A stretch of DNA of 64,000 nt from Burkholderiales bacterium (GCA_049802235.1 JBARMB010000050.1:87577-151576); one strand, 5' to 3'. Counted from the stretch's first letter, positions 8,812 to 40,456 are shown. A program made the numbers and translations. The notes: generated by a model not told the origin, from the sequence alone.

Positions 8812-9801
8812 ATGTCGCAACTGCGTCTTTCCATCGCGACCACGGATTACGATCATTTCCGCGATTTCAGGCTGGGCTGGGTCAAGGCCGAAGGCATCGA
8901 TCTCAATTGGCTCAATCTCGGCCACCACGAGTGCTTTGCGCGCTTCACGGCCCATCGCGAATTCGATTTATCCGAACTTTCCTTGGCGAAATTCACGACC
9001 CAGGTGACGCGCAAAGACAGCGACGTCATAGGCCTTCCGGTCGTCTGCTCGCGGCTGTTCCGCTTCAGCTCCTTCTATGTGAACAAGAAGAGCAAGATCA
9101 AAACCGTGCAGGATCTGAAGGGCAAGAAAATCGGCTCGCCGGAATGGGCGCATTCGGCGGCCGTGTATATGCGCGGCTGGATGCACAACGACATGGGCGT
9201 GAAGCTCACGGACGTGCACTGGGTCCAGGCGGGCGCGAACGCGCCCGGCCGCGAAGAAAAGGTCGAGCTCGATCTCCCCAAGGGGCTGAAGCTCACGCGC
9301 GTCGCCGACAAGTCCCTGAGCGAGTTGCTGGCCGCGGGCGAGATCGACTGCGCCATCATCGCGCGCCCGCCGAACTGTTTCCTGGAAGGCCATCCCGACG
9401 TGGTGCGCCTGTTTCCGGATTATCTCGGGATGGAAGAGGACTATTACGAACGGACCGGGGTCTGGCCGATCATGCACATCATTGCAATGAGGAGGCGGAT
9501 CCTGGAGGAGAATCCCTGGGCCGCGCGCAATCTCTACAATGCCTTCCTGGAATCGAAGCGCCGCAGCATCGAGCGCCTGCTCGATCCCGCCGTATCGCGC
9601 TATCCACTGGCGTGGCTTCCCACCTACGCGCGCAAGATGCGCGACCTGTTCGGCGGCGATCCGTTTCCCTACGGCATCGAGGAAAACCGTGCGACCTGGG
9701 AACAGATGGCGCTCTACACCTGGCAGCAGGGCATTGCCCACCGCCAATTCAAGCCCGAGGAAATTTTCCCCGAGGGCATCATGACCAAGGTGGTGATCTG
9801 A
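8812..9801 (+). CDS. 4,5-dihydroxyphthalate decarboxylase-family (PhtD-like) protein
   Basis: MSQLRLSIATTDYDHFRDFRLGWVKAEGIDLNWL...EFDLSELSLAKF is an N-terminal pattern typical of proteins annotated as PhtD-like. RBS AAGGGGA lies upstream. Confidence 0.65.
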   Translation: MSQLRLSIATTDYDHFRDFRLGWVKAEGIDLNWLNLGHHECFARFTAHREFDLSELSLAKFTTQVTRKDSDVIGLPVVCSRLFRFSSFYVNKKSKIKTVQDLKGKKIGSPEWAHSAAVYMRGWMHNDMGVKLTDVHWVQAGANAPGREEKVELDLPKGLKLTRVADKSLSELLAAGEIDCAIIARPPNCFLEGHPDVVRLFPDYLGMEEDYYERTGVWPIMHIIAMRRRILEENPWAARNLYNAFLESKRRSIERLLDPAVSRYPLAWLPTYARKMRDLFGGDPFPYGIEENRATWEQMALYTWQQGIAHRQFKPEEIFPEGIMTKVVI

Positions 9802-9802
9802 A

Positions 9803-10567
9803 ATGAGCAACGCACACAAGATCGTGGAAGCACCGAAATCAGGCGATCCGGTCGCAGCCGCGCTGATGGCAGACCTGGCCGCCGCGAGCCGCATCCTCGT
9901 CGCGCAGAATGTCGTCGACGGCTTCGGTCACGTCTCGATGCGCCATCCGTCGGCGCCCGAGCGCTATCTGATGGCGCGCTCGATTGCACCGGCATTGGTG
10001 ACGCCCGATGACATCATCGAATACGATCTGGACAGCAATCCCTGCAATGCCAACGGCCGCGGCAGTTTCCTCGAGCGCTTCATCCACGGCGAAATCTACA
10101 AAGCCAGGCCGGATGTCATGTCGGTTGTGCACAGCCATTCGCCGTCGGTGGTCCCGTTCGGGCTGGTCGGCGTGCCGATGCAGGCGATGTTCCACAACGC
10201 CGCCTTTATCGCCGCCGGCGTGCCGGTGTTCGACATCCGTGACAAGTTCGGCGCCACCGACATGCTGGTCGGCAACGGGCCCAAGGGCGTGGCGCTGGCG
10301 GAGGTCATGGGCAACAAGGACATCGTGCTCATGCGCGCGCATGGCAGCGTCGCCTGCGGACCGACGCTGCAGTCGGCGGTATTCCGCGCGGTGTACACCG
10401 AAGTCAATGCCCGCATCCAGCACTGGACCCTGGCGCTCGGGGGCGGTGCGCCGATGGCCGCGCTCGACGCTGATGAAGGCCGGCTCGCCGACGCCATCAA
10501 CCAGACCGCCGGCAAGCGCGCCTGGGACCTGTGGCGCAGCCAGGTCCGCAGCCAGGTCAACTGGTAG
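9803..10567 (+). CDS. Class II aldolase/adducin-domain protein
   Basis: The Zn-ligand His pattern (VVHSHSP...RAHGSV) and 254-aa length fit the family. It starts 1 nt after the previous stop codon. Confidence 0.8.
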   Translation: MSNAHKIVEAPKSGDPVAAALMADLAAASRILVAQNVVDGFGHVSMRHPSAPERYLMARSIAPALVTPDDIIEYDLDSNPCNANGRGSFLERFIHGEIYKARPDVMSVVHSHSPSVVPFGLVGVPMQAMFHNAAFIAAGVPVFDIRDKFGATDMLVGNGPKGVALAEVMGNKDIVLMRAHGSVACGPTLQSAVFRAVYTEVNARIQHWTLALGGGAPMAALDADEGRLADAINQTAGKRAWDLWRSQVRSQVNW

Positions 10568-10624
10568 CGCGCCGGTCAACCTGCAATATCCGCAATCCGC
10601 AACGATCACCGGGGGCAGTACGTC

Positions 10625-11296
10625 ATGTCAGAGACCGAATTGAAGCAGCAGCTCGTCGACTGCATCCGCATGCTCGAGCAATCCGACATCATCGACTACA
10701 ACGGCCATTGCAGCATCCGCGTCGACGACAACCGCGTCCTCATCAACATCGGCTCGTGCCAGCGCAGCCGGCTCACCGTCGATGACATCTGCACCATCGA
10801 CCTCGAAGCGAATCAGATCGAGGGCAAGGGCAATGCGCCGCTGGAGCGCCACCTGCATTGCGGCGTCTACCGGGTTCGGCCCGAGGTGAAGGCGATCGTG
10901 CACGCGCACCCGAAGTGGTCCACGTTCCTCACCATGGTCGGCGAGAGCTACCAGCCGGTGTACGCGCAGGGGTCGCTGGTCTATCCGGTGCCGCTGCTCG
11001 ACTCGCCGAACGCGATCAACAACCGGCCGATGGCCGACCGCCTGGCCGCCACGCTCGGGCAAAGGCCCGCGGCGCTGATGAAGTCGCACGGCGCGGTGAC
11101 GGTCGGCAAGGACATCGTCGAGGCATTCGTGCTCGCGAACTATATGGAGGAGAACGCCTACCGGCAGTACATGGCGCTGCAGATCGGCAAGCCTTATGCG
11201 TTCAGCGAGGAGGAAGTGGCGCTGTGCCGCGAGAAGCTCTGGAATCCGGGTCTGTTCAAGCGCACTTGGGATCATTTCCGCGCGAAGCTGGGGTGA
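10625..11296 (+). CDS. Class II aldolase/adducin-domain protein (second paralogue)
   Basis: IVHAHPKWS...KSHGAVTVG pattern; 223 aa. Confidence 0.8.
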   Translation: MSETELKQQLVDCIRMLEQSDIIDYNGHCSIRVDDNRVLINIGSCQRSRLTVDDICTIDLEANQIEGKGNAPLERHLHCGVYRVRPEVKAIVHAHPKWSTFLTMVGESYQPVYAQGSLVYPVPLLDSPNAINNRPMADRLAATLGQRPAALMKSHGAVTVGKDIVEAFVLANYMEENAYRQYMALQIGKPYAFSEEEVALCREKLWNPGLFKRTWDHFRAKLG

Positions 11297-11389
11297 TCCG
11301 CCGGGCGACTCGGTCCACCTCCGGCGCGAAAGCCGGAGTAAGCTAAGAGCAACGTTGCACAGACAACGCTTCTGAACCAGGGAGGCATC

Positions 11390-11842
11390 ATGCACCCGGA
11401 GATACACTTGAATTTCCCCGCGGTCATCGCGGCGGTCGTCGCCAGCATCATTTTCGGATGGCTCTGGCACGGTCCCCTGTTCGGCAAGAAATGGATGGCC
11501 CTCATGGGCATGCCCATGGACTCCAAGCCCGATCCCAAGGTGGTCAAGAAAATGATGACGCGCGGCATCGGGCTGATGGTGCTCGGCGGCTTCCTCATGG
11601 CCTGGGTGCTGACCTATACCTCCGATATCTGGCGCCCCTCGGTGTGGGGCCTGGGTCCGGACGCGCCGGCCTACGCGTACGGCTTCGCTACCGCATTCTT
11701 CACCTGGATCGGCTTCTTCGTGCCGCTGCTGCTCAACACGGTCGCATGGGAAAGCCGCAGCTGGAGCTTGTTCGGGATCAACGCCGGGTTCCACTTTTTC
11801 AACCTGAATCTCATGGCGTTGATACTTGCCTACTGGCGCTAA
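11390..11842 (+). CDS. DUF1761-like small membrane protein
   Basis: 150 aa with four hydrophobic segments and an N-terminus IIFGWLWHGPLFGKKWM typical of DUF1761 (recalled, not searched). RBS GGGAGG lies upstream. Confidence 0.6.
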   Translation: MHPEIHLNFPAVIAAVVASIIFGWLWHGPLFGKKWMALMGMPMDSKPDPKVVKKMMTRGIGLMVLGGFLMAWVLTYTSDIWRPSVWGLGPDAPAYAYGFATAFFTWIGFFVPLLLNTVAWESRSWSLFGINAGFHFFNLNLMALILAYWR

Positions 11843-11885
11843 GCAAGAGAATCGAAGGGGTCGGAGTCACCCCTCAAGCACTAAT

Positions 11886-11912
11886 GGTCAGTGAGCTGAC
11901 CCCTTAGGTTTT
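11886..11912 (+). terminator. Candidate intrinsic terminator hairpin (GGTCAG-TGAG-CTGACC) after the DUF1761 gene
   Basis: A perfect 6-bp stem with a 4-nt loop at 11886-11901 is followed by CCTTAGGTTTT. The U-tract is short and interrupted. The hairpin overlaps the left direct repeat. Confidence 0.35.
11892..11903 (+). repeat. Left copy of the 12-bp direct repeat TGAGCTGACCCC flanking the island
   Basis: Identical to 16604-16615. A second nearby near-repeat is GGGTCGGAGT (11858-11867) against GGGTCGGAAT (16595-16604). Confidence 0.7.
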
Positions 11913-11938
11913 GACAGGCCCAGTGAACAGAAAATAGT
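11911..11938 (+). promoter_or_regulatory. Candidate sigma70-type promoter for the island operon (TTGACA-N16-AATAGT)
   Basis: Perfect -35 TTGACA at 11911-11916 and a 4/6 -10 match at 11933-11938, about 55 nt upstream of ATG 11992 in an A-rich spacer. Confidence 0.3.
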
Positions 11939-11991
11939 GAAAAAAGTAAAAAAATAATAAGTAGTTCAGCGAAGTAGTGTAAGATTAAATA

Positions 11992-12246
11992 ATGATGCCT
12001 AATGCTCGACTCAAGGCCGTCACCCGTGAGGACGTCATTCGCGTCAGCAAGCGAATCGAACCAAAAACTATCCAGAAGTGGAGCGTTGTTGTAGGAAATA
12101 AAGAGTTTCCTATTAAACAGATTCTAATGGAGGCAGCAAATAGCATTACTTCCTCTGCTCCTCGTGTTACGCCTGCAGATTTCATCACCCATTCCGCAGT
12201 AAGCCGCCTCAAGACGCTTGGGTTTGCGGTTCGGTACTCCGAATGA
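11992..12246 (+). CDS. Small (84 aa) protein resembling the N-terminal putative DNA-binding module of McrB/HNH-type restriction proteins
   Basis: The pattern VTREDVIRV...KWSVVVGNKEFPIKQILMEAAN...TPADFITHSAVSRLKTLGFAV matches a module I recall at the N-termini of many type IV restriction/HNH proteins (itrEdv..., y.l...gk.yP.K.i...A, ...f.....a...L..LGF.v). No clear SD sequence. Its stop overlaps the next ATG (ATGA). Confidence 0.55.
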   Translation: MMPNARLKAVTREDVIRVSKRIEPKTIQKWSVVVGNKEFPIKQILMEAANSITSSAPRVTPADFITHSAVSRLKTLGFAVRYSE

Positions 12247-13589
12247 GAACTCAGAAGCGCTCGACAGTCGAGCTGTCGGATCTGCTAAGCGATTGCGATA
12301 ATCTAGCTCGGCGGTTTGTGGTGGAGGACAGAACTCGAGAGTTCGGAAAATTTCTGACATTTGAGCCCAATCTTTCACGGCCGATTCATCGCTGGTACAA
12401 ATTCAAAGAAGGATTCTCTCAGGAGTTGGTTGATCGCCTCCTAACAGAATATCGGCCGCCTTCGGCGAAGACCTTGGCATTCTTGGATCCGTTCTCCGGG
12501 GTTGGCACCTCGCTGCTGGCTGCTGAGGGGACATTGCGAAAGCTAGGGGCAAAGGAAATCCGAGTTCGTGGCGTCGAAGTAAACCCATACATGCACTTCG
12601 TGGGTAAGACTAAGCTGGACTGGCAACGTTACGATCCAGTCTTTCTCCGTCGCGCAGCTGCGGCCGCTACGAATGGGCTGGCCTTAAGAAAGAAGCCATC
12701 TATCCCAGGTCTGTCTACGATAAGAGATGCTAGGTTCATCGATCCGAATGACCTACAGAGAATCCTCGAGCTCCGAGACAAGGTCAAAATGGTTGCGCAG
12801 GGTCGTCCTGAGGTTCGCCCCCTGCTTCTTGGTCTTGCGGCTGGCGCAGAACGCATTTTCAATCTGCGGAAGGACGGTCGTGCTCTCCGTTTTACGCCTC
12901 GAGAGGGCGGCAAAAGCGTTGACGAGGAAATCGAGTGCGCATGGAATGATATTTCTGAAGATCTGCAGCTCAATGTTGAGAGGTCACCAGCTGACTGGAA
13001 GCTTGCAAAAGGCGACGGACGAAGAGTCGATCGGATATTCAGCCACGAAAAATTCGACGTAATCCTCTTTTCTCCTCCTTATCTGAATAACATTGATTAC
13101 ACCGAAGTCTATAAGATCGAGCAGTGGCTTTTGGGATTTCTGAATAGCAGTCCCGAGATGGTTGCTCAGCGCAAGCGAACCTTTCGCAGTCATCCGAGTT
13201 GTATATTTCCCGACTATCGAGACGCCAATACGGAGGAGGTTGTCAACATTCTGGGCGCGCCATTTCGGCGATTACTTGAATACGCTTCCCGCGAAGAGAA
13301 TTGGCGTCGCCGACTCTTTACTGGTTACTTCGCCGATATGTATAGGACGCTGTTAGCAAGCCGAAGGCTGCTCAAGCAGAGCGGTCGAGTATTTCTCATA
13401 GTAGGGAATTCCGTGCACGGAACGCCGGATCGTCCGATCCCTATTGCCGTTGATCTTTGGATCGCGAAGCTCGCTAAGGCAGCGGGCCTACGTGTGGAAT
13501 CTATTCTAGTTGGCCGATTGCTCTCGAGGCGACGCATGGAGTGGAATGGATTTCGTGAATCGATCATAGTCATGTCGAAGGCGACCTAG
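12243..13589 (+). CDS. Putative DNA methyltransferase (N4-cytosine or N6-adenine; SPPY catalytic motif)
   Basis: AdoMet motif I-like LDPFSGVGTS (aa 81-90, nt 12483-12512) is followed by GVEVNP. Catalytic motif IV is ILFSPPYLNNIDY (SPPY at nt 13071-13082). Motif I precedes motif IV by about 190 aa. VFLIVGNS lies near the C-terminus. Confidence 0.75.
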   Translation: MRTQKRSTVELSDLLSDCDNLARRFVVEDRTREFGKFLTFEPNLSRPIHRWYKFKEGFSQELVDRLLTEYRPPSAKTLAFLDPFSGVGTSLLAAEGTLRKLGAKEIRVRGVEVNPYMHFVGKTKLDWQRYDPVFLRRAAAAATNGLALRKKPSIPGLSTIRDARFIDPNDLQRILELRDKVKMVAQGRPEVRPLLLGLAAGAERIFNLRKDGRALRFTPREGGKSVDEEIECAWNDISEDLQLNVERSPADWKLAKGDGRRVDRIFSHEKFDVILFSPPYLNNIDYTEVYKIEQWLLGFLNSSPEMVAQRKRTFRSHPSCIFPDYRDANTEEVVNILGAPFRRLLEYASREENWRRRLFTGYFADMYRTLLASRRLLKQSGRVFLIVGNSVHGTPDRPIPIAVDLWIAKLAKAAGLRVESILVGRLLSRRRMEWNGFRESIIVMSKAT

Positions 13590-13591
13590 CT

Positions 13592-15535
13592 ATGGCACTC
13601 AGCAAGAAGGACAGCTCCCTTCGATTCGAAGCTAGCGCCAGACTACAGCGATTGTTCGGCCGCGAGCTTATTCCGGACGATGACTCAGCGGTAGAAGAGT
13701 TGACCAAGAACGCATATGACTCTAATGCATCGGAAGTTACGATCACAATTGTTCGTCCATCTGGCGATCGGGATGGAGAAATAGAAATACGAGATAACGG
13801 CCTAGGCTTATCTCTTACAGAGTTCAACCGTGTTTGGATGCGGGCTGGCTATTCAGAGAAAGCCGGACAGCCGCTTCCAGGTACTGGGCGAGTTCAGGTT
13901 GGTGAAAAAGGAATCGGGCGTTTCGCGGCAGATAAACTTGGCCGACACCTAATTGTGCTAACGAAGCCTCGTGGGGCCCGCGAAGCGCTAAAGGTGACCT
14001 TCGACTGGAGAAAGTTCGAGAAGAAGAAACTGTTGCTCTCTGATATTTCCAATCCATATGAACATGTGGACGAGCCTTTGCTTCCGAAGGGCTCCTCCGG
14101 GACGATTCTTCGAATACGCGGCCTACGTTCCGATTGGCCCGACAAGGCCATAGAAGAAATGCGCCGTCGCCTATCGCGCCTTTTGAATCCCTACGACAAA
14201 GGGCAGACTTTCCGAATCGTTCTAAATGCGCCAAGCCGAAAGCTGAGTGGGCCTATCGTCGGGAGCGAGATCAAAAATGCTGACTTCGAATGGGAAGTCA
14301 CGAGGTCTGCGCAGGGCACTATCCGTATGAAGCGACGGAACCGCGTGCAACGCGGTATTCCGGAATGGAGCGACTGGGAATCAGTGCTCATAACAAAAAA
14401 GGGGTCGGTCCCGGAGCAGCAAGACTTTGGTCCTGTAAATGCCCGCTTCTTCTTCTTTGTAGACCGACCGAAGAAAGCAAATATTGGTGATGCTATACCT
14501 GGTGTGGCTATTTACCGTGATGGCATGCGAGTAGAGCCCGCGGGATCGAGTAGCGCGGACTGGCTAGGACTACTAGAAAAGCGGGCAAAGCGCGCTGGTC
14601 ATATGCCGTTAGTTCCTTCTAGACTCTTCGGCTTTGTCAAGATCAGCCGCGATGAAAATCCGGAGTTGCAGGACGCCACAAATCGGCGCGCTTTTGTACA
14701 CGGCCCGCAACTTGATACCTTTCGGCAATTCTTGAAGGACAGACTAAGTGAACTCGAGGCACAAGTCGAAAGTGAGGTTGCCAAGCCCCGGTGGGAAAAG
14801 TCAAAGCAGCTTAAGAGCCAGAAGCTTCTTCAGGCGCGCTACAACACGGTTAGCATCATGTCCCTTAGCTTGGCTCACGAACTTAGGCAACCACTTCAGG
14901 CTATACAGACGGCCTCGGAGAATATTCGTGATTATCTTAAGCAGAAAGGCATCACAATTGCAGAAGTGGACTCTGGGACCGATGTGATTAGAAGAAACGT
15001 GGCACGGATTGAAAAACACATTCAATTTCTGAAGTCACTGGGATCAGGGCGACAAGAACAGGAATCATTCGATGCTGTTAAGGCAGCAGAAGAGGTAATC
15101 GGAGTATTTGGCGGGGTTGCGGCGGCGCAGAACGTTCAGCTTGTCCGAGAAGGTTCACCAAAATCGATGGTACTCAGTAACCACGCGACATTCTTAGCCA
15201 CGCTTACGAATCTTGTCCTCAATGCATTACAGGCCATTGAGGGACAGGATGAACAGAAACCACATCACATTCAAATAAAATTCGAGGCTGGGCGGAAGCT
15301 CACTAAGATACGAGTAGAAGACGATGGGCCAGGAATACCAGAGGCGAACCGCACGAGACTGTTCAAGCGCCTAACGACCAGCAAGCAAGGAGGCATGGGC
15401 ATCGGTCTCATTGTATGGCGCGAGGCCTTGCAGATGTTTAGCGGCGAACTGGAGTGCGAAAGCTTTAGCGACCCAACAACGTTTGTTATAACAGTTCCCA
15501 CGGGGGTGCCGGATGGCTCGAGTTCTTCTGGTTGA
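13592..15535 (+). CDS. Fusion protein: N-terminal MORC/paraMORC-like GHKL ATPase plus C-terminal histidine-kinase core (HisKA and HATPase_c); no TM or classical sensor domain
   Basis: N-terminal Bergerat motifs are EELTKNAYDSNA (N40), IRDNGLGL (aa 66-73) and GEKGIGRFAADKLG (aa 104-117). The H-box is SLAHELRQPL (His429, nt 14876-14878). The second GHKL module has NLVLNALQAI (N-box), VEDDGPGIP (G1) and KQGGMGIGL (G2). No hydrophobic segments. Confidence 0.8.
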   Translation: MALSKKDSSLRFEASARLQRLFGRELIPDDDSAVEELTKNAYDSNASEVTITIVRPSGDRDGEIEIRDNGLGLSLTEFNRVWMRAGYSEKAGQPLPGTGRVQVGEKGIGRFAADKLGRHLIVLTKPRGAREALKVTFDWRKFEKKKLLLSDISNPYEHVDEPLLPKGSSGTILRIRGLRSDWPDKAIEEMRRRLSRLLNPYDKGQTFRIVLNAPSRKLSGPIVGSEIKNADFEWEVTRSAQGTIRMKRRNRVQRGIPEWSDWESVLITKKGSVPEQQDFGPVNARFFFFVDRPKKANIGDAIPGVAIYRDGMRVEPAGSSSADWLGLLEKRAKRAGHMPLVPSRLFGFVKISRDENPELQDATNRRAFVHGPQLDTFRQFLKDRLSELEAQVESEVAKPRWEKSKQLKSQKLLQARYNTVSIMSLSLAHELRQPLQAIQTASENIRDYLKQKGITIAEVDSGTDVIRRNVARIEKHIQFLKSLGSGRQEQESFDAVKAAEEVIGVFGGVAAAQNVQLVREGSPKSMVLSNHATFLATLTNLVLNALQAIEGQDEQKPHHIQIKFEAGRKLTKIRVEDDGPGIPEANRTRLFKRLTTSKQGGMGIGLIVWREALQMFSGELECESFSDPTTFVITVPTGVPDGSSSSG

Positions 15536-16013
15536 TGACGAGAAAGATATCCGTGACATGTTTCTCGATGCGCTGAAACTGCACGGACATCAAGTGGATG
15601 TTGCCGCCTCCGCTGAGGAAGCCATGAAGCGTGCTGCGAATCGAAGCTATGACGTTGCAATAATTGATTACGTTTTGCCGGACAAGCGTGGCCTGGATCT
15701 CTTGCAGGAATTGCGCCGCCGCCAGTCCTTCCTGAGAGCAATCATTATCTCCGGACAGATTGATCACGACGTGCTTGATGCCGGTGAACTTGAGAGGCAA
15801 CTGAAAGAGCGTATCGCGGCAGACCGCTATTTGCCGAAGCCCACCAGTATCGATAGTTTAGTTCGAGCGATAGAAGATGTTCTCAAACCCACGGCTGCCG
15901 GTGATTGGAAGCAGATGGCTGCCGCTGCCGTAGCAGCGCAAGGTGTTAAGACCAAGCACGTAAAGGACATGGATCGCGCACTACATAAAGCGCGCAAGAA
16001 GCGTAAAACATGA
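15513..16013 (+). CDS. Stand-alone response-regulator receiver (CheY-like) protein with a basic C-terminal tail
   Basis: The receiver-signature residues I looked for (acidic pair, phospho-acceptor Asp, Ser/Thr, Lys) are all present: VLLVDDE (D8, D9), IIDYVLPD (D52), IIISG (S80) and LPKP (K109). There is no output domain. The tail is ...HKARKKRKT. It overlaps the kinase gene by 23 nt. Confidence 0.85.
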   Translation: MARVLLVDDEKDIRDMFLDALKLHGHQVDVAASAEEAMKRAANRSYDVAIIDYVLPDKRGLDLLQELRRRQSFLRAIIISGQIDHDVLDAGELERQLKERIAADRYLPKPTSIDSLVRAIEDVLKPTAAGDWKQMAAAAVAAQGVKTKHVKDMDRALHKARKKRKT

Positions 16014-16492
16014 TCTACGTTCTGGATACGTGTGCCTTAATATGGGCCTATCGGGAAAGATCCAAGTTTTGTCGCCGTTGTCGATACATAATTAGCCACT
16101 GTCAAGGGCGCGTATACGTCGCAGAGATAACCGTTCTCGAGATTGTTAGCGCGCTAGGAAGGACACATCGACGCGGGACAATTACACTTGGCGAGTACTC
16201 GCAGGCTAATCGCAGGTTTTTGCGCGATGTTGCTTCAGGCGCACTGGTCGTTATGTCATTACCCAGTTCGGAATTTGTCGCGTGTCGGGATCTATTGCAG
16301 TTGGTCGGAATTGACGCGGGCAGAAATCTCCAAACCCAAGATGCGATGGTCGCTTATACCGCTCGCCGCCTAGCTCTTGAGCGTGGCGAGGTAGTAAGGC
16401 TGCTGACTAGCGACCGGCGTCTTGCGGCGATCGTTAAGGAGCTACCAATCTTCAAGAACCTCGTCATTTCTGAATACCTCAATCCCAACTAA
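16010..16492 (+). CDS. PIN-domain nuclease (VapC-like)
   Basis: MIYVLDTCALIW (D6), VLEIV (E44), TQDAMVAYTA (D111) and LLTSDRRLA (D135) form the four-acidic-residue PIN signature. The ATG overlaps the receiver gene's stop (ATGA). Confidence 0.8.
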   Translation: MIYVLDTCALIWAYRERSKFCRRCRYIISHCQGRVYVAEITVLEIVSALGRTHRRGTITLGEYSQANRRFLRDVASGALVVMSLPSSEFVACRDLLQLVGIDAGRNLQTQDAMVAYTARRLALERGEVVRLLTSDRRLAAIVKELPIFKNLVISEYLNPN

Positions 16493-16603: not shown

Positions 16604-16615
16604 TGAGCTGACCCC
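16604..16615 (+). repeat. Right copy of the 12-bp direct repeat TGAGCTGACCCC flanking the island
   Basis: Identical to 11892-11903. It lies 17 nt from the gor stop codon. Confidence 0.7.
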
Positions 16616-38990: not shown

Positions 38991-39103
38991 CGGATGATCG
39001 GACTTGCCACCGCTAAAAAGTTTCAGCTTGCCCCCCTCCCGAAGTTCCGTACTGTCAAATGCCTGAAGGGGCCACGAGGCCCCGAGGGGTGAATCTTTTT
39101 TCA

Positions 39104-39179
<76 letters not shown>

Positions 39180-39214
39180 CCGCGCCCGCAACTGCGCGCG
39201 CGACGATGGGTGTG

Positions 39215-39220
39215 CATTAT
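39215..39220 (-). promoter_or_regulatory. Candidate -10 box (TATAAT on the minus strand) upstream of tRNA-Thr
   Basis: Plus-strand ATTATA at 39215-39220 lies about 36 nt upstream of the mature tRNA 5' end. No good -35 box is present. A 9-bp GC hairpin (39228-39254, probably the fur-family gene terminator) lies just upstream. Confidence 0.25.
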
Positions 39221-39263
39221 AGCAGTCGCGCCCCGGAGACGGCGCCCGGGGCGCCATCTCGCC

Positions 39264-39683
39264 TCAGGATCGGGGACGCGTGCGAATGACGATATCGACG
39301 CCGTCGGCGACCGCTCCCGGCGGAAGAGGCGGCAGGCCGACAACGCGGATGTCATCGGCAGGCACGTCGGTCAATTGCCCGGTCACGACGTCGTAGAAAT
39401 GATGGTGTGGCGCAGTGTTCGGGTCGTACACGACTTTGCTCGGGTCGACGATAAGTTCACGAATGAGCTTCTTCTCCAGGAACAGCTTGAGTGTGTTGTA
39501 CACAGTCGCCTTCGAGGCCTCGGCGTGGCGGGTATTGACAAGCGCGAGGATCTGGTCAGCGGAAAGATGCTCGCGCCGCTCGAACAATGCGTGCGCGATC
39601 TCGATGCGCTGGTGGGTCGGCGTGATGCCGTGAGAGCGCAAAAGGTCGGCCACCTGCTCGCGAGCATGGCTGGGATGTTTCAT
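39264..39683 (-). CDS. Fur-family transcriptional regulator
   Basis: ...HGITPTHQRIEIAHALFERREHLSADQILALVN......ASKATVYNTLKLFLEKKLIREL... is a winged-helix Fur pattern with HHHFYD in the metal-site region. I did not see the C-terminal CxxC pairs. Confidence 0.8.
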   Translation of the reverse strand: MKHPSHAREQVADLLRSHGITPTHQRIEIAHALFERREHLSADQILALVNTRHAEASKATVYNTLKLFLEKKLIRELIVDPSKVVYDPNTAPHHHFYDVVTGQLTDVPADDIRVVGLPPLPPGAVADGVDIVIRTRPRS

Positions 39684-39694
39684 GGGTTTTAATT

Positions 39695-39721
39695 TTAGAC
39701 CACAGTTTGGACTATGTCTAA
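39695..39721. promoter_or_regulatory. Inverted repeat TTAGAC-N15-GTCTAA (candidate operator) in the fur-family/pilE divergent region
   Basis: The 6-bp arms are seen directly. The inner 17-mer AGACCACAGTTTGGACT is itself 6/8 palindromic. It lies 12 nt upstream of the fur-family start codon. Confidence 0.25.
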
Positions 39722-39997
39722 TTTGTTTTCCCCGCCCTTTCTGTCACTGCTCTTTCCGGATTCGCCCAACGCTACATAACTACGGAGATTCGGGCCTACC
39801 GGAAACTCCGATGCGATAACAGGCGTAGTCACGCTCGATGCATTGTTTGCCGTTTCTCGAAGCCGACGGAAGCGTGAAATAGTTCCGCTATACTCGACTC
39901 CGAATGCCGTTCATTCTCTCGAACCGGCCTCTCGTCAGAGCGGGTTGAGCGGCAGCGTTCCTTGCCTCTATCATTCCATCAACCCAAAGGGGGAAAA

Positions 39998-40456
39998 ATG
40001 TCGAAATCGGCTGGCTTCACCTTAATAGAGCTTCTGACCGTGGTGGCGGTTATCGCCGTACTCTCTGCGATCGCGGTGCCGAGCTACACTCAGTACGTCA
40101 CTCGCAGCAAGATCACCGAGGCTACCTCGCAGCTGGCTGATCTACGCGTCAAGATGGAGCAGTGGTTCCAGGACAACCGCACCTATGTCGGCGGCACCTG
40201 CGCGCCCACGGGCAGCGCTGCCGCGCAGGTGAAATACTTCACTTTCTCCTGCATCGCCGGCCAGCCGACCGCAACGACCTACACGATCCAGGCGGTGGGC
40301 GGTACTGCCTCTGACGCTGGCATGGTCGGTTTTGTCTATTCCATCGACCAATCCAACGCCAAGGCCACCTCGATCACAGGGGGGTCGCCAGCCGAGTCCG
40401 CCGGCTGGACCGGCAACGGCAATTGCTGGGTAATCCGTAAAGGCGGGCAATGCTAA
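39998..40456 (+). CDS. pilE: Type IV pilin (PilE-like)
   Basis: Class III signal MSKSAG/FTLIELLTVVAVIAVLSAIAVPSY, with a C-terminal Cys pair (CWVIRKGGQC). Confidence 0.85.
   Translation: MSKSAGFTLIELLTVVAVIAVLSAIAVPSYTQYVTRSKITEATSQLADLRVKMEQWFQDNRTYVGGTCAPTGSAAAQVKYFTFSCIAGQPTATTYTIQAVGGTASDAGMVGFVYSIDQSNAKATSITGGSPAESAGWTGNGNCWVIRKGGQC

Follow-up and report, generated by a model that had tools for sequence, protein, structure and literature searches.

A methyltransferase, MORC::histidine kinase, receiver, and PIN nuclease operon as a candidate phosphorelay-linked defense module in a Burkholderiales genome

The closest described relatives of the genes analyzed here come from a comparative genomics study that defined, computationally, a pair of proteins resembling a two-component system (TCS) and termed "TCS-like" (Bellieny-Rabelo, Pretorius, and Moleleki 2021, PMC8011034). 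The kinase of this pair is soluble and combines HATPase_c_3, a new dimerization and histidine phosphotransfer (DHp) profile named HEF_HK with a conserved His-Glu, and HATPase_c, and its partner is a receiver-like protein, Response_reg_2, the two being 91.6% linked. The pair usually lies downstream of a C5 methylase, often followed by Vsr, with strong linkage to restriction-modification (R-M) genes; its authors saw kinship with paraMORCs and suggested a regulatory connection with R-M systems, with no mention of a PIN partner or of an immune-effector logic. Here, we analyze a five-gene operon in a 64-kb window, that is, the whole stretch of DNA examined, from a Burkholderiales metagenome-assembled genome (GCA_049802235.1). 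The core of this operon encodes a methyltransferase, a MORC-type ATPase fused to a histidine kinase, a stand-alone receiver, and a PIN nuclease.

Other described systems approach this operon from the side of defense. Detocs (DtcA/DtcB/DtcC) is a phage defense system built on a His-Asp relay with exchangeable toxic effectors, in which defense requires both the His and the Asp and ends in abortive infection (Rousset et al., bioRxiv 10.1101/2023.01.24.525353). It has a TPR-type sensor, no methyltransferase, a buffer receiver (DtcB), and an effector-fused receiver (DtcC), the effector being mostly a PNP ATP-nucleosidase (bioRxiv 10.1101/2023.01.24.525353). ParaMORC1-5 were defined in R-M contexts, with no histidine kinase fusion among them (Iyer, Abhiman, and Aravind 2008, PMC2292703), and in VcSduA, a GHKL-Shedu protein, a paraMORC GHKL module controls a defense nuclease (PMC12137116). 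MADS (mad1-8) is a methylation-associated multigene defense operon that includes a kinase-annotated gene and is defined by mad6-8 (Maestri et al., bioRxiv 10.1101/2023.03.30.534895).

Conserved core and domain architecture

The operon consists of five open reading frames (ORFs), all on the + strand (11992-12246, 12243-13589, 13592-15535, 15513-16013, and 16010-16492), with junctions of -4, +2, -23, and -4 nt in that order. These coordinates and the tight coupling had been given in an earlier note, generated by a model from the sequence alone, and its other primary observations hold as well. All of the motifs that it named (LDPFSGVGTS, SPPY, AHELRQPL with H429, D8/D9-D52-S80-K109, and D6/E44/D111/D135) were found, and its domain identities agree with Pfam, PDB profiles, Foldseek, and PADLOC, although the HisKA and N6_N4_Mtase matches fall under the Pfam cutoffs. 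Likewise, as the note had stated, we found no recognizable restriction endonuclease and no DNA-binding output on the receiver, and no membrane-spanning segment is predicted in any of the five proteins. Each of the five genes has homologues in conserved order in other genomes, so they are real genes rather than chance reading frames.

We compared the operon with a close clade of 21 other nonredundant loci, whose kinases are 33-75% identical and 630-650 amino acids (aa) long. These loci are mostly from Acidobacteriota (Thermoanaerobaculia, Solibacteraceae, Pyrinomonadaceae, Terriglobia, Bryobacterales, and Vicinamibacterales). The receiver gene and then the PIN gene follow the kinase gene, in the same order, in 21/21 loci, and a methyltransferase gene lies directly 5' of the kinase wherever upstream sequence exists, although in locus L017 it is a different, shorter N6_N4-type gene. 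Junctions in these loci typically overlap or nearly abut, and divergence of the methylase tracks that of the kinase (r about 0.9). Methyltransferase, MORC::kinase, receiver, and PIN therefore form a four-gene core whose members travel together. The synteny whose absence the earlier note had listed among its refuting conditions is thus conserved across unrelated taxa and in defense and mobile contexts. Some copies are degenerate: both methylase and kinase are frameshifted in loci L014 and L046, and the kinase of L090 is split.

The central protein of the core is the 647-aa fusion, for which hundreds of full-length homologues exist (37-75% identity among the 120 listed). Its structure was predicted with AlphaFold2 (AF2) from 119 homologues (pLDDT 85.4, pTM 0.68). 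The N-terminal part (aa 1 to ~370; 13592..14701) is a MORC-type ATPase module, a GHKL Bergerat fold followed by an S5-like transducer, because Foldseek aligns it over ~450 columns with MORC2-DNA (9cdj, 6e-13), MORC3 (6o1e/5ix2), and SMCHD1 (6mw7), at E values of 6e-13 to 5e-12. Pfam HATPase_c_3 matches aa 32-160 of this module (1e-22), and a profile of 27 family members matches MORC3 in PDB over positions 30-126. Bergerat GHKL motifs I to IV are present, with E36, N40, D43, D68xGxG72, and G104-G109 invariant or nearly so. The invariant residues of the module are E36, N40, D43, D68, G70, G72, G104, K106, G107, and G109, as well as R309, D310, W324, G336, H337, and P342 further on, and its most variable stretch is aa 221-280.

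The C-terminal half has the organization of a histidine kinase. In the AF2 model, a single long signaling helix (aa 372-451) runs into DHp helix 1 and bears H429 (codon 14876-14878, H-box AHELRQPL); it is followed by DHp helix 2 (aa 457-484; the whole helical region spanning 14705..15043) and by a catalytic ATP-binding (CA) domain (aa 491-637; 15062..15535), assigned from fold, conservation, and a Pfam HATPase_c match at aa 537-637 (8e-22). The Pfam HisKA match is weak (aa 426-477, 5.7e-5, under the Pfam cutoff). The histidine kinase core is supported by the 27-member profile, which matches ZraS in PDB at 1.9e-33 over positions 394-630 as well as FixL and HK853, and Foldseek retrieves FixL chimeras, ZraS, and HK853 for this half. 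In the alignment of 119 sequences, H429, E430, and Q433 are invariant, and H429-E430 supplies the phospho-acceptor His and acidic residue on the DHp helix that characterize two-component kinases. The CA boxes comprise N544 (N box), D577/G581 (G1), and G601/G603 (G2); in the same alignment, no substitution occurs at N544, D577, G581, or G603, and conservation of G601 is at least 90%. Judging by these residues, both ATP sites of the fusion protein look intact. The protein thus has a soluble HATPase_c_3, DHp, and HATPase_c architecture, and no nuclease fold was found in its model by Foldseek.

The stand-alone receiver (166 aa; 15513..16013, + strand) matches Pfam Response_reg at 8.8e-18 and has all of its signature residues, namely D8/D9, D52 (codon 15666-15668), S80, and K109; in a set of 19 sequences, conservation reaches at least 90% at each of D52, S80, G81, K109, and P110. 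It ends in a conserved C-terminal extension of ~45 residues (aa ~125-166; nt 15885-16010) with W132, A136, L157, and a Lys/Arg-rich end. This extension matched no known output domain, and neither a DNA-binding nor an enzymatic output was found on the receiver. The PIN nuclease (160 aa; 16010..16492, + strand; Pfam PIN 5.5e-10) begins within the receiver stop (ATGA) and has a complete acidic tetrad, with D6, E44, D111, and D135 each at least 90% conserved among 19 sequences; no sequence relative of it was found in PDB. Its homologues are few (n=29), and every one that could be checked is on a contig bearing the system, so that this PIN subfamily is exclusive to the system in the data gathered.

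The DNA methyltransferase (448 aa; 12243..13589, + strand) matches PADLOC MTase_II PDLC03224 over its full length at 2.6e-42 and gave only insignificant matches to non-DNA methylases (E 0.01-0.035), which settles in favor of DNA a point on which the earlier note had made its reading depend. The Pfam N6_N4_Mtase match is weak (1e-4, under the Pfam cutoff), and no sequence relative was found in PDB. Motif I, LDPFSGVGTS (nt 12483-12512, aa 81-90), precedes motif IV, SPPY (nt 13071-13082, aa 277-280), and SPPY is invariant in 17/17 aligned homologues. In amino-methyltransferases, N4-cytosine specificity is indicated by a Ser at motif IV, and the Ser of SPPY suggests the same for the enzyme of the window.

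The fusion kinase belongs to a much wider superfamily. The kinase sequence used alone as query gave no match in species-representative genomes; an alignment-based scan, in which each species was represented by one genome, recovered relatives at no fewer than 531 loci. At E <= 1e-30, at least 698 cluster representatives were retrieved (1.84 billion searched; clusters at 50% identity). Most of the 150 listed have lengths of 630-790 aa, and they match both modules. The distant members of the superfamily (25-29% identity) are spread over Bacteroidota, Verrucomicrobiota, Planctomycetota, Actinomycetota, Proteobacteria, Chloroflexota, and Thaumarchaeota. In 51 of 65 distant loci, a C5 cytosine methylase is directly 5' of the kinase, and a Vsr gene is often present, which argues for actual methylation of the host genome. 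Downstream of the kinase, these loci encode either a ~207-aa receiver-like protein and a 209-aa protein or a ~380-aa protein with an N-terminal receiver fused to a C-terminal domain of about 250 aa. The three receiver types are linked by profile-profile comparison (96-97% probability), in which PIN, the 209-aa protein, and the region of the 380-aa protein beyond its receiver showed no kinship with one another. The 209-aa family (L018-L080, e.g., L028 9728-10357) has an invariant SHG...C...G pattern, and its PDB profile matches all fall short of the threshold (E 0.4-0.7), nearly every one being to a caspase large subunit; the protein may be a caspase-like protease effector. A further arrangement occurs in a cultured strain, on plasmid P2 of Deinococcus gobiensis I-0 (L172; NC_017791.1 397192-402805), with genes in the order helix-turn-helix (HTH) regulator, Eco57I-like methylase, 750-aa MORC::kinase, 215-aa receiver-like protein, and HNH endonuclease. 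Distant forms are also present in the cultured Mucilaginibacter sp. E4BP6, Flavobacterium flavipigmentatum F-70, and Azospirillum brasilense ATCC 49958. Since both the methylase class (C5, SPPY-type, or Eco57I-like) and the effector vary, the constant part of the superfamily is methylase, MORC::kinase, and receiver, and such modularity of methylase and effector is typical of immune systems.

Over its full length, the kinase of the window is homologous to the kinases found in the C5 methylase context (E 1e-42 to 1e-62, phmmer and tblastn). HEF_HK (PF19191) and Response_reg_2 (PF19192) matched neither the proteins of the window nor the C5-type relatives (proteins of L028, L037, L043, L059, and L073) at E values up to 10. 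Either these models are narrow or they are absent from the Pfam copy used, and the family will go unnoticed in routine annotation. Our distant relatives agree with the published description of the TCS-like pair, unconfirmed by the Pfam models of that paper.

Low-GC island, ORF1, and genomic contexts

The operon coincides with a low-GC island. The GC content is 0.51-0.52 in the 12-16 kb bins and ~0.60-0.70 in the remaining window (1-kb bins); outside the island, every bin has a GC content of at least 0.578, so that this is the sole low-GC island of the window, as had been claimed. A perfect 12-nt direct repeat, TGAGCTGACCCC, brackets the island exactly where the composition changes, with the left copy at 11892..11903 and the right copy at 16604..16615 (spacing 4712). 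Direct repeats of 11-12 nt are expected often by chance within 5 kb, so TGAGCTGACCCC is suggestive by its position alone; the two copies may represent the island boundary or a target duplication within a hairpin. Both copies lie within hairpin-like sequence, the left one being GGTCAGTGAGCTGACC. Judged from these surroundings, it is as if the island had been inserted into or beside a terminator.

Upstream of ORF1, an A-rich leader contains a sigma-70-like promoter match, TTGACA-16-AATAGT (10/12; 11911..11938, + strand), a consensus match in a region where such sites are no more numerous than expected from shuffled sequence. No tRNA or Rfam element was found near the island. An empty insertion site was sought in related Burkholderiales by means of the adjoining glutathione-reductase gene. 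No island lies beside this gene in those genomes, and no clean empty site was found there because the flanking synteny is likewise not conserved. Elsewhere in the window, bin 39001-40000 (GC 0.584) is the second-lowest away from the island's own flanking bins, and the sole tRNA gene, tRNA-Thr(CGT) (39104-39179, - strand), falls in it; this bin could be another integration hotspot.

The first gene of the operon, ORF1 (11992..12246, + strand; 83/84 aa, SCO5918 family, PF28009), is accessory, as it is restricted to the close subclade of the window (L001, L087, L088, and L090) and is replaced elsewhere by an HTH_17 gene, a DUF4062 gene, or an unrelated ORF. It opens with ATGATG (11992-11997), and 46/46 homologues, 83-86 aa long, align from the second Met, so the true start is probably 11995. 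Sequence searches of PDB and Pfam and a fold search of the viral library BFVD gave nothing for ORF1. The best fold match of its AF2 model (pLDDT 89) is marginal (5zmm_B, E 0.084, probability 0.96, TM 0.53) and is to ScoMcrA, a type IV restriction enzyme. The earlier description of ORF1 as "DNA-reader-like" is supported by this marginal match only, and ORF1 also lies outside the conserved core; it is perhaps regulatory.

The contexts of the close clade point to mobility and conflict. Conjugative-element genes accompany the system in L006 (TrwC, ParB, and ArdC) and in L088 (TraG, RepB primase, DUF932, and RadC), a type I R-M system and an integrase in L001, a NACHT-metallophosphatase protein in L087, two integrases, a ParE toxin-antitoxin pair, and Abi_C in L090, and a PglZ/SNF2/DUF488 cluster in L091. 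The island of L089 sits between guaA fragments, with GMP_synt_C on both sides. No full-length close relative was found in plasmids or phages, and E. coli genomes searched by blastn with a gammaproteobacterial relative gave no match.

Two of these loci deserve separate description. In L087 (1-12293), the island, the gene for the 1095-aa NACHT-metallophosphatase, and a transposase fragment lie between a Mur ligase gene and ftsZ, which makes it an insertion within a cell-division gene cluster. In the independent loci L001 and L006, a convergent three-gene cassette is found just downstream of the system (8914-12691 and 8997-12734, respectively, both on the - strand), encoding an SMC/ABC-like ATPase (682/666 aa), a protein of 230/223 aa, and a protein of 346/360 aa with a weak PD-(D/E)XK match. 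This cassette may be a second, co-travelling defense system.

Proposed mechanism and alternative explanations

How might these proteins work together? We propose that the operon is an R-M-like conflict (defense) module, in which a MORC-type DNA sensor drives a His-Asp relay controlling a PIN toxin, and that the island carrying it was horizontally acquired; jointly, we give this explanation a probability of about 0.5. It draws on the domain anatomy with its intact catalytic residues, the strict co-occurrence and order of the four core genes, the confinement of the PIN homologues to contigs with the system, the modular swapping of methylase and effector, and the mobile or defense surroundings, including the low GC content and flanking repeat of the island itself. 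In solved relatives, the MORC module dimerizes on ATP and clamps DNA. In the operon of the window, the methyltransferase would mark resident DNA, and the MORC module would act as an ATP-driven DNA clamp or sensor responding to unmarked DNA, possibly with the methylase as the sequence reader. The continuous helix would relay the change to H429, which would autophosphorylate, and the phosphate would pass from H429 to D52 of the receiver. The receiver would hold PIN, probably via its C-terminal tail, as VapB holds VapC, with a grip that is altered on phosphorylation, and PIN would then cut RNA (tRNA or rRNA), leading to growth arrest or aborted infection. The four-step scheme of the earlier note (unmodified DNA sensed, H429 phosphorylated, D52 phosphorylated, and PIN released) is plausible. 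The weakest steps are the trigger and the sign of the switch, both of which we purely infer. As precedents, Detocs demonstrates that a His-Asp relay can gate an abortive-infection effector, and VcSduA that a paraMORC GHKL module can control a defense nuclease. Taken further, the superfamily as a whole would couple an epigenetic mark to abortive infection: a MORC ATPase would read methylation as self or nonself, and a His-Asp relay would pass the signal to interchangeable effectors acting in trans (PIN here; HNH or protease-like elsewhere), with no endonuclease. This broader proposal we hold tentatively, at somewhat short of even odds.

Several points weigh against the conflict module as proposed. 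The methylase class is swapped across the superfamily, which is awkward for a fixed methylase-kinase complex, and covariation between kinase aa 215-290 and methylase aa 125-265 beyond overall divergence is nonsignificant (partial r 0.22, permutation p 0.088). The H+4 position of the H-box (HELRQPL) is the invariant Gln433 (codon 14888-14890), whereas HisKA phosphatase activity needs Thr/Asn at H+4 (rule as quoted in bioRxiv 10.64898/2026.02.27.708494); given this Gln, the fusion family may be kinase-only or may have a different reset mechanism. In L089 (5228-8004), the methylase is split by an insertion sequence (IS; Transposase_mut), with the kinase, receiver, and PIN intact, which simple self-killing on methylation loss would not allow unless the IS also silences the downstream genes. 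Finally, a literature search found no experiment on any member of the superfamily and no follow-up to PMC8011034.

The main rival reverses the logic. In such a guard or addiction arrangement, which we consider unlikely, MORC on methylated resident DNA would keep the kinase active, the phosphorylated receiver would silence PIN, and PIN would be freed once the signal is lost, whether because a phage degrades the host DNA, ATP collapses, anti-methylase proteins act, or the island itself disappears; the methylase would then serve postsegregational stabilization as much as defense. An ATGA overlap joins the receiver and PIN genes as in an antitoxin-toxin pair, the receiver tail is conserved, the kinase lacks the canonical phosphatase residue, and the islands are small and mobile, all of which suit a guard, as does the stand-alone receiver of Detocs, which protects against autoimmunity (bioRxiv 10.1101/2023.01.24.525353). 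However, the characterized receiver-effector pairs that can be cited here, DtcC of Detocs included, are activated by phosphorylation, and the IS-disrupted methylase is tolerated in L089. A regulatory TCS or epigenetic switch, tuning the methyltransferase or a distant R-M system, with PIN as a passenger toxin or an RNA-processing output, is in our view improbable. It would agree with the signaling control of R-M systems proposed by Bellieny-Rabelo et al. (PMC8011034) and with the small regulator-like gene often found 5' of the system (HTH_17 in L002; HTH genes in Deinococcus), but the receiver has no DNA-binding or enzymatic output, the slot after it is always taken by a degradative effector (PIN, HNH, or possibly caspase-like) unless the receiver is itself fused to one, and the PIN subfamily is exclusive to the system.

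The 647-aa protein could also be read as a type II restriction enzyme of the BbrUII/HgiDII type that acts with the methylase, with receiver-PIN as an adjacent VapBC-like pair. NCBIfam NF050001 (BbrUII/HgiDII restriction enzyme; 1.6e-19) and PADLOC REase_II do match, but only the GHKL part (aa 22-216), with 70 bits for NF050001 against a cutoff of 550 bits. The remainder is an S5 transducer and a complete histidine kinase transmitter with no nuclease fold, and the always adjoining receiver appears to be a bona fide phospho-acceptor partner, which leaves this explanation a very small probability; assignment to type II R-M was rejected. In the HgiDII system, a GHKL-type enzyme is paired with a 5-methylcytosine methylase. 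If this holds, the kinase forms may derive from GHKL-containing restriction enzymes whose nuclease was replaced by a transmitter. Chance juxtaposition of unrelated genes on a junk island can practically be dismissed and is refuted by synteny, as the order is repeated in all 21 other loci, which come from different phyla, with overlapping junctions.

If the conflict module works as proposed, it would be the first case in which DNA methylation status is converted to a phosphorylation signal and, after Detocs, the second phosphorelay-based immune system, mechanistically distinct from it. It would also make the sensing of DNA or epigenetic state by MORC-family ATPases accessible in a tractable bacterial system, which bears on the eukaryotic MORCs of gene silencing, where the sensing question stands. 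Furthermore, it would assign a function to at least about 700 protein clusters now annotated "sensor histidine kinase" or "ATP-binding protein," and the D. gobiensis plasmid P2 form is a possible experimental model.

Comparison with named systems

PADLOC yielded component-level matches only (MTase_II, REase_II on the GHKL part, and a weak receiver match), and none of its system models matched. Like Detocs, the operon couples a His-Asp relay, here predicted from the genes, to a toxic effector. Unlike Detocs, it has a MORC ATPase as sensor, an obligatory methylase, one receiver, and an effector that is a separate polypeptide; membership was rejected because the three-gene set of kinase, buffer receiver, and receiver-effector fusion is not present. 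PADLOC PDC-M60B/C matched the window weakly, at the level of the receiver; we presume, as a guess only, that PDC-M60B/C corresponds to Detocs. The comparison with MADS that the earlier note had called for shows a shared plan, a methylation-associated multigene operon with a kinase gene, and a weak mad2 match to the methylase (1.3e-5). None of the five proteins matched mad3-8 in PADLOC, so mad6-8 are absent and the operon is not MADS.

With paraMORC1-5, VcSduA, and BbrUII/HgiDII, the operon shares a GHKL(+S5) ATPase linked to DNA methylases or nucleases, the MORC module being encoded in one operon with the methylase. The ATPase of those proteins, for which control of a nuclease has been proposed or shown, works directly with a nuclease or helicase or is fused to one, and none of them has a histidine kinase transmitter, whereas the output in the window is a predicted phosphorelay. 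The 3' end of the operon resembles VapBC in having a PIN toxin with four conserved acidic residues, encoded directly after and overlapping a small partner gene. The partner, however, is a receiver with a basic tail rather than an AbrB, RHH, Phd, or HTH antitoxin, and the receiver-PIN pair never occurs without kinase and methylase in the data gathered. A plain VapBC was therefore rejected, the upstream gene encoding a receiver in place of an antitoxin with a DNA-binding N terminus.

The earlier claim that this combination is unlike any named system stands insofar as no PADLOC model covers it, and it has to be narrowed insofar as the superfamily was already reported in 2021 (PMC8011034) and Detocs had already set the precedent for phosphorelay defense. 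Like the PMC8011034 family, the window has a soluble HATPase_c_3::DHp::HATPase_c kinase with a methylase directly 5' and a receiver-type partner directly 3'. Unlike that family, with its C5 methylase, divergent ~380-aa receiver, and no PIN, it has an SPPY-type methylase, a canonical 166-aa receiver, and a separate PIN. The operon is not categorically new; it is a new form, with SPPY-type methylase, canonical receiver, and PIN, of a kind described computationally and as yet uncharacterized. Overall, the superfamily to which it belongs is widespread, unnamed in defense catalogues, and mechanistically unusual.

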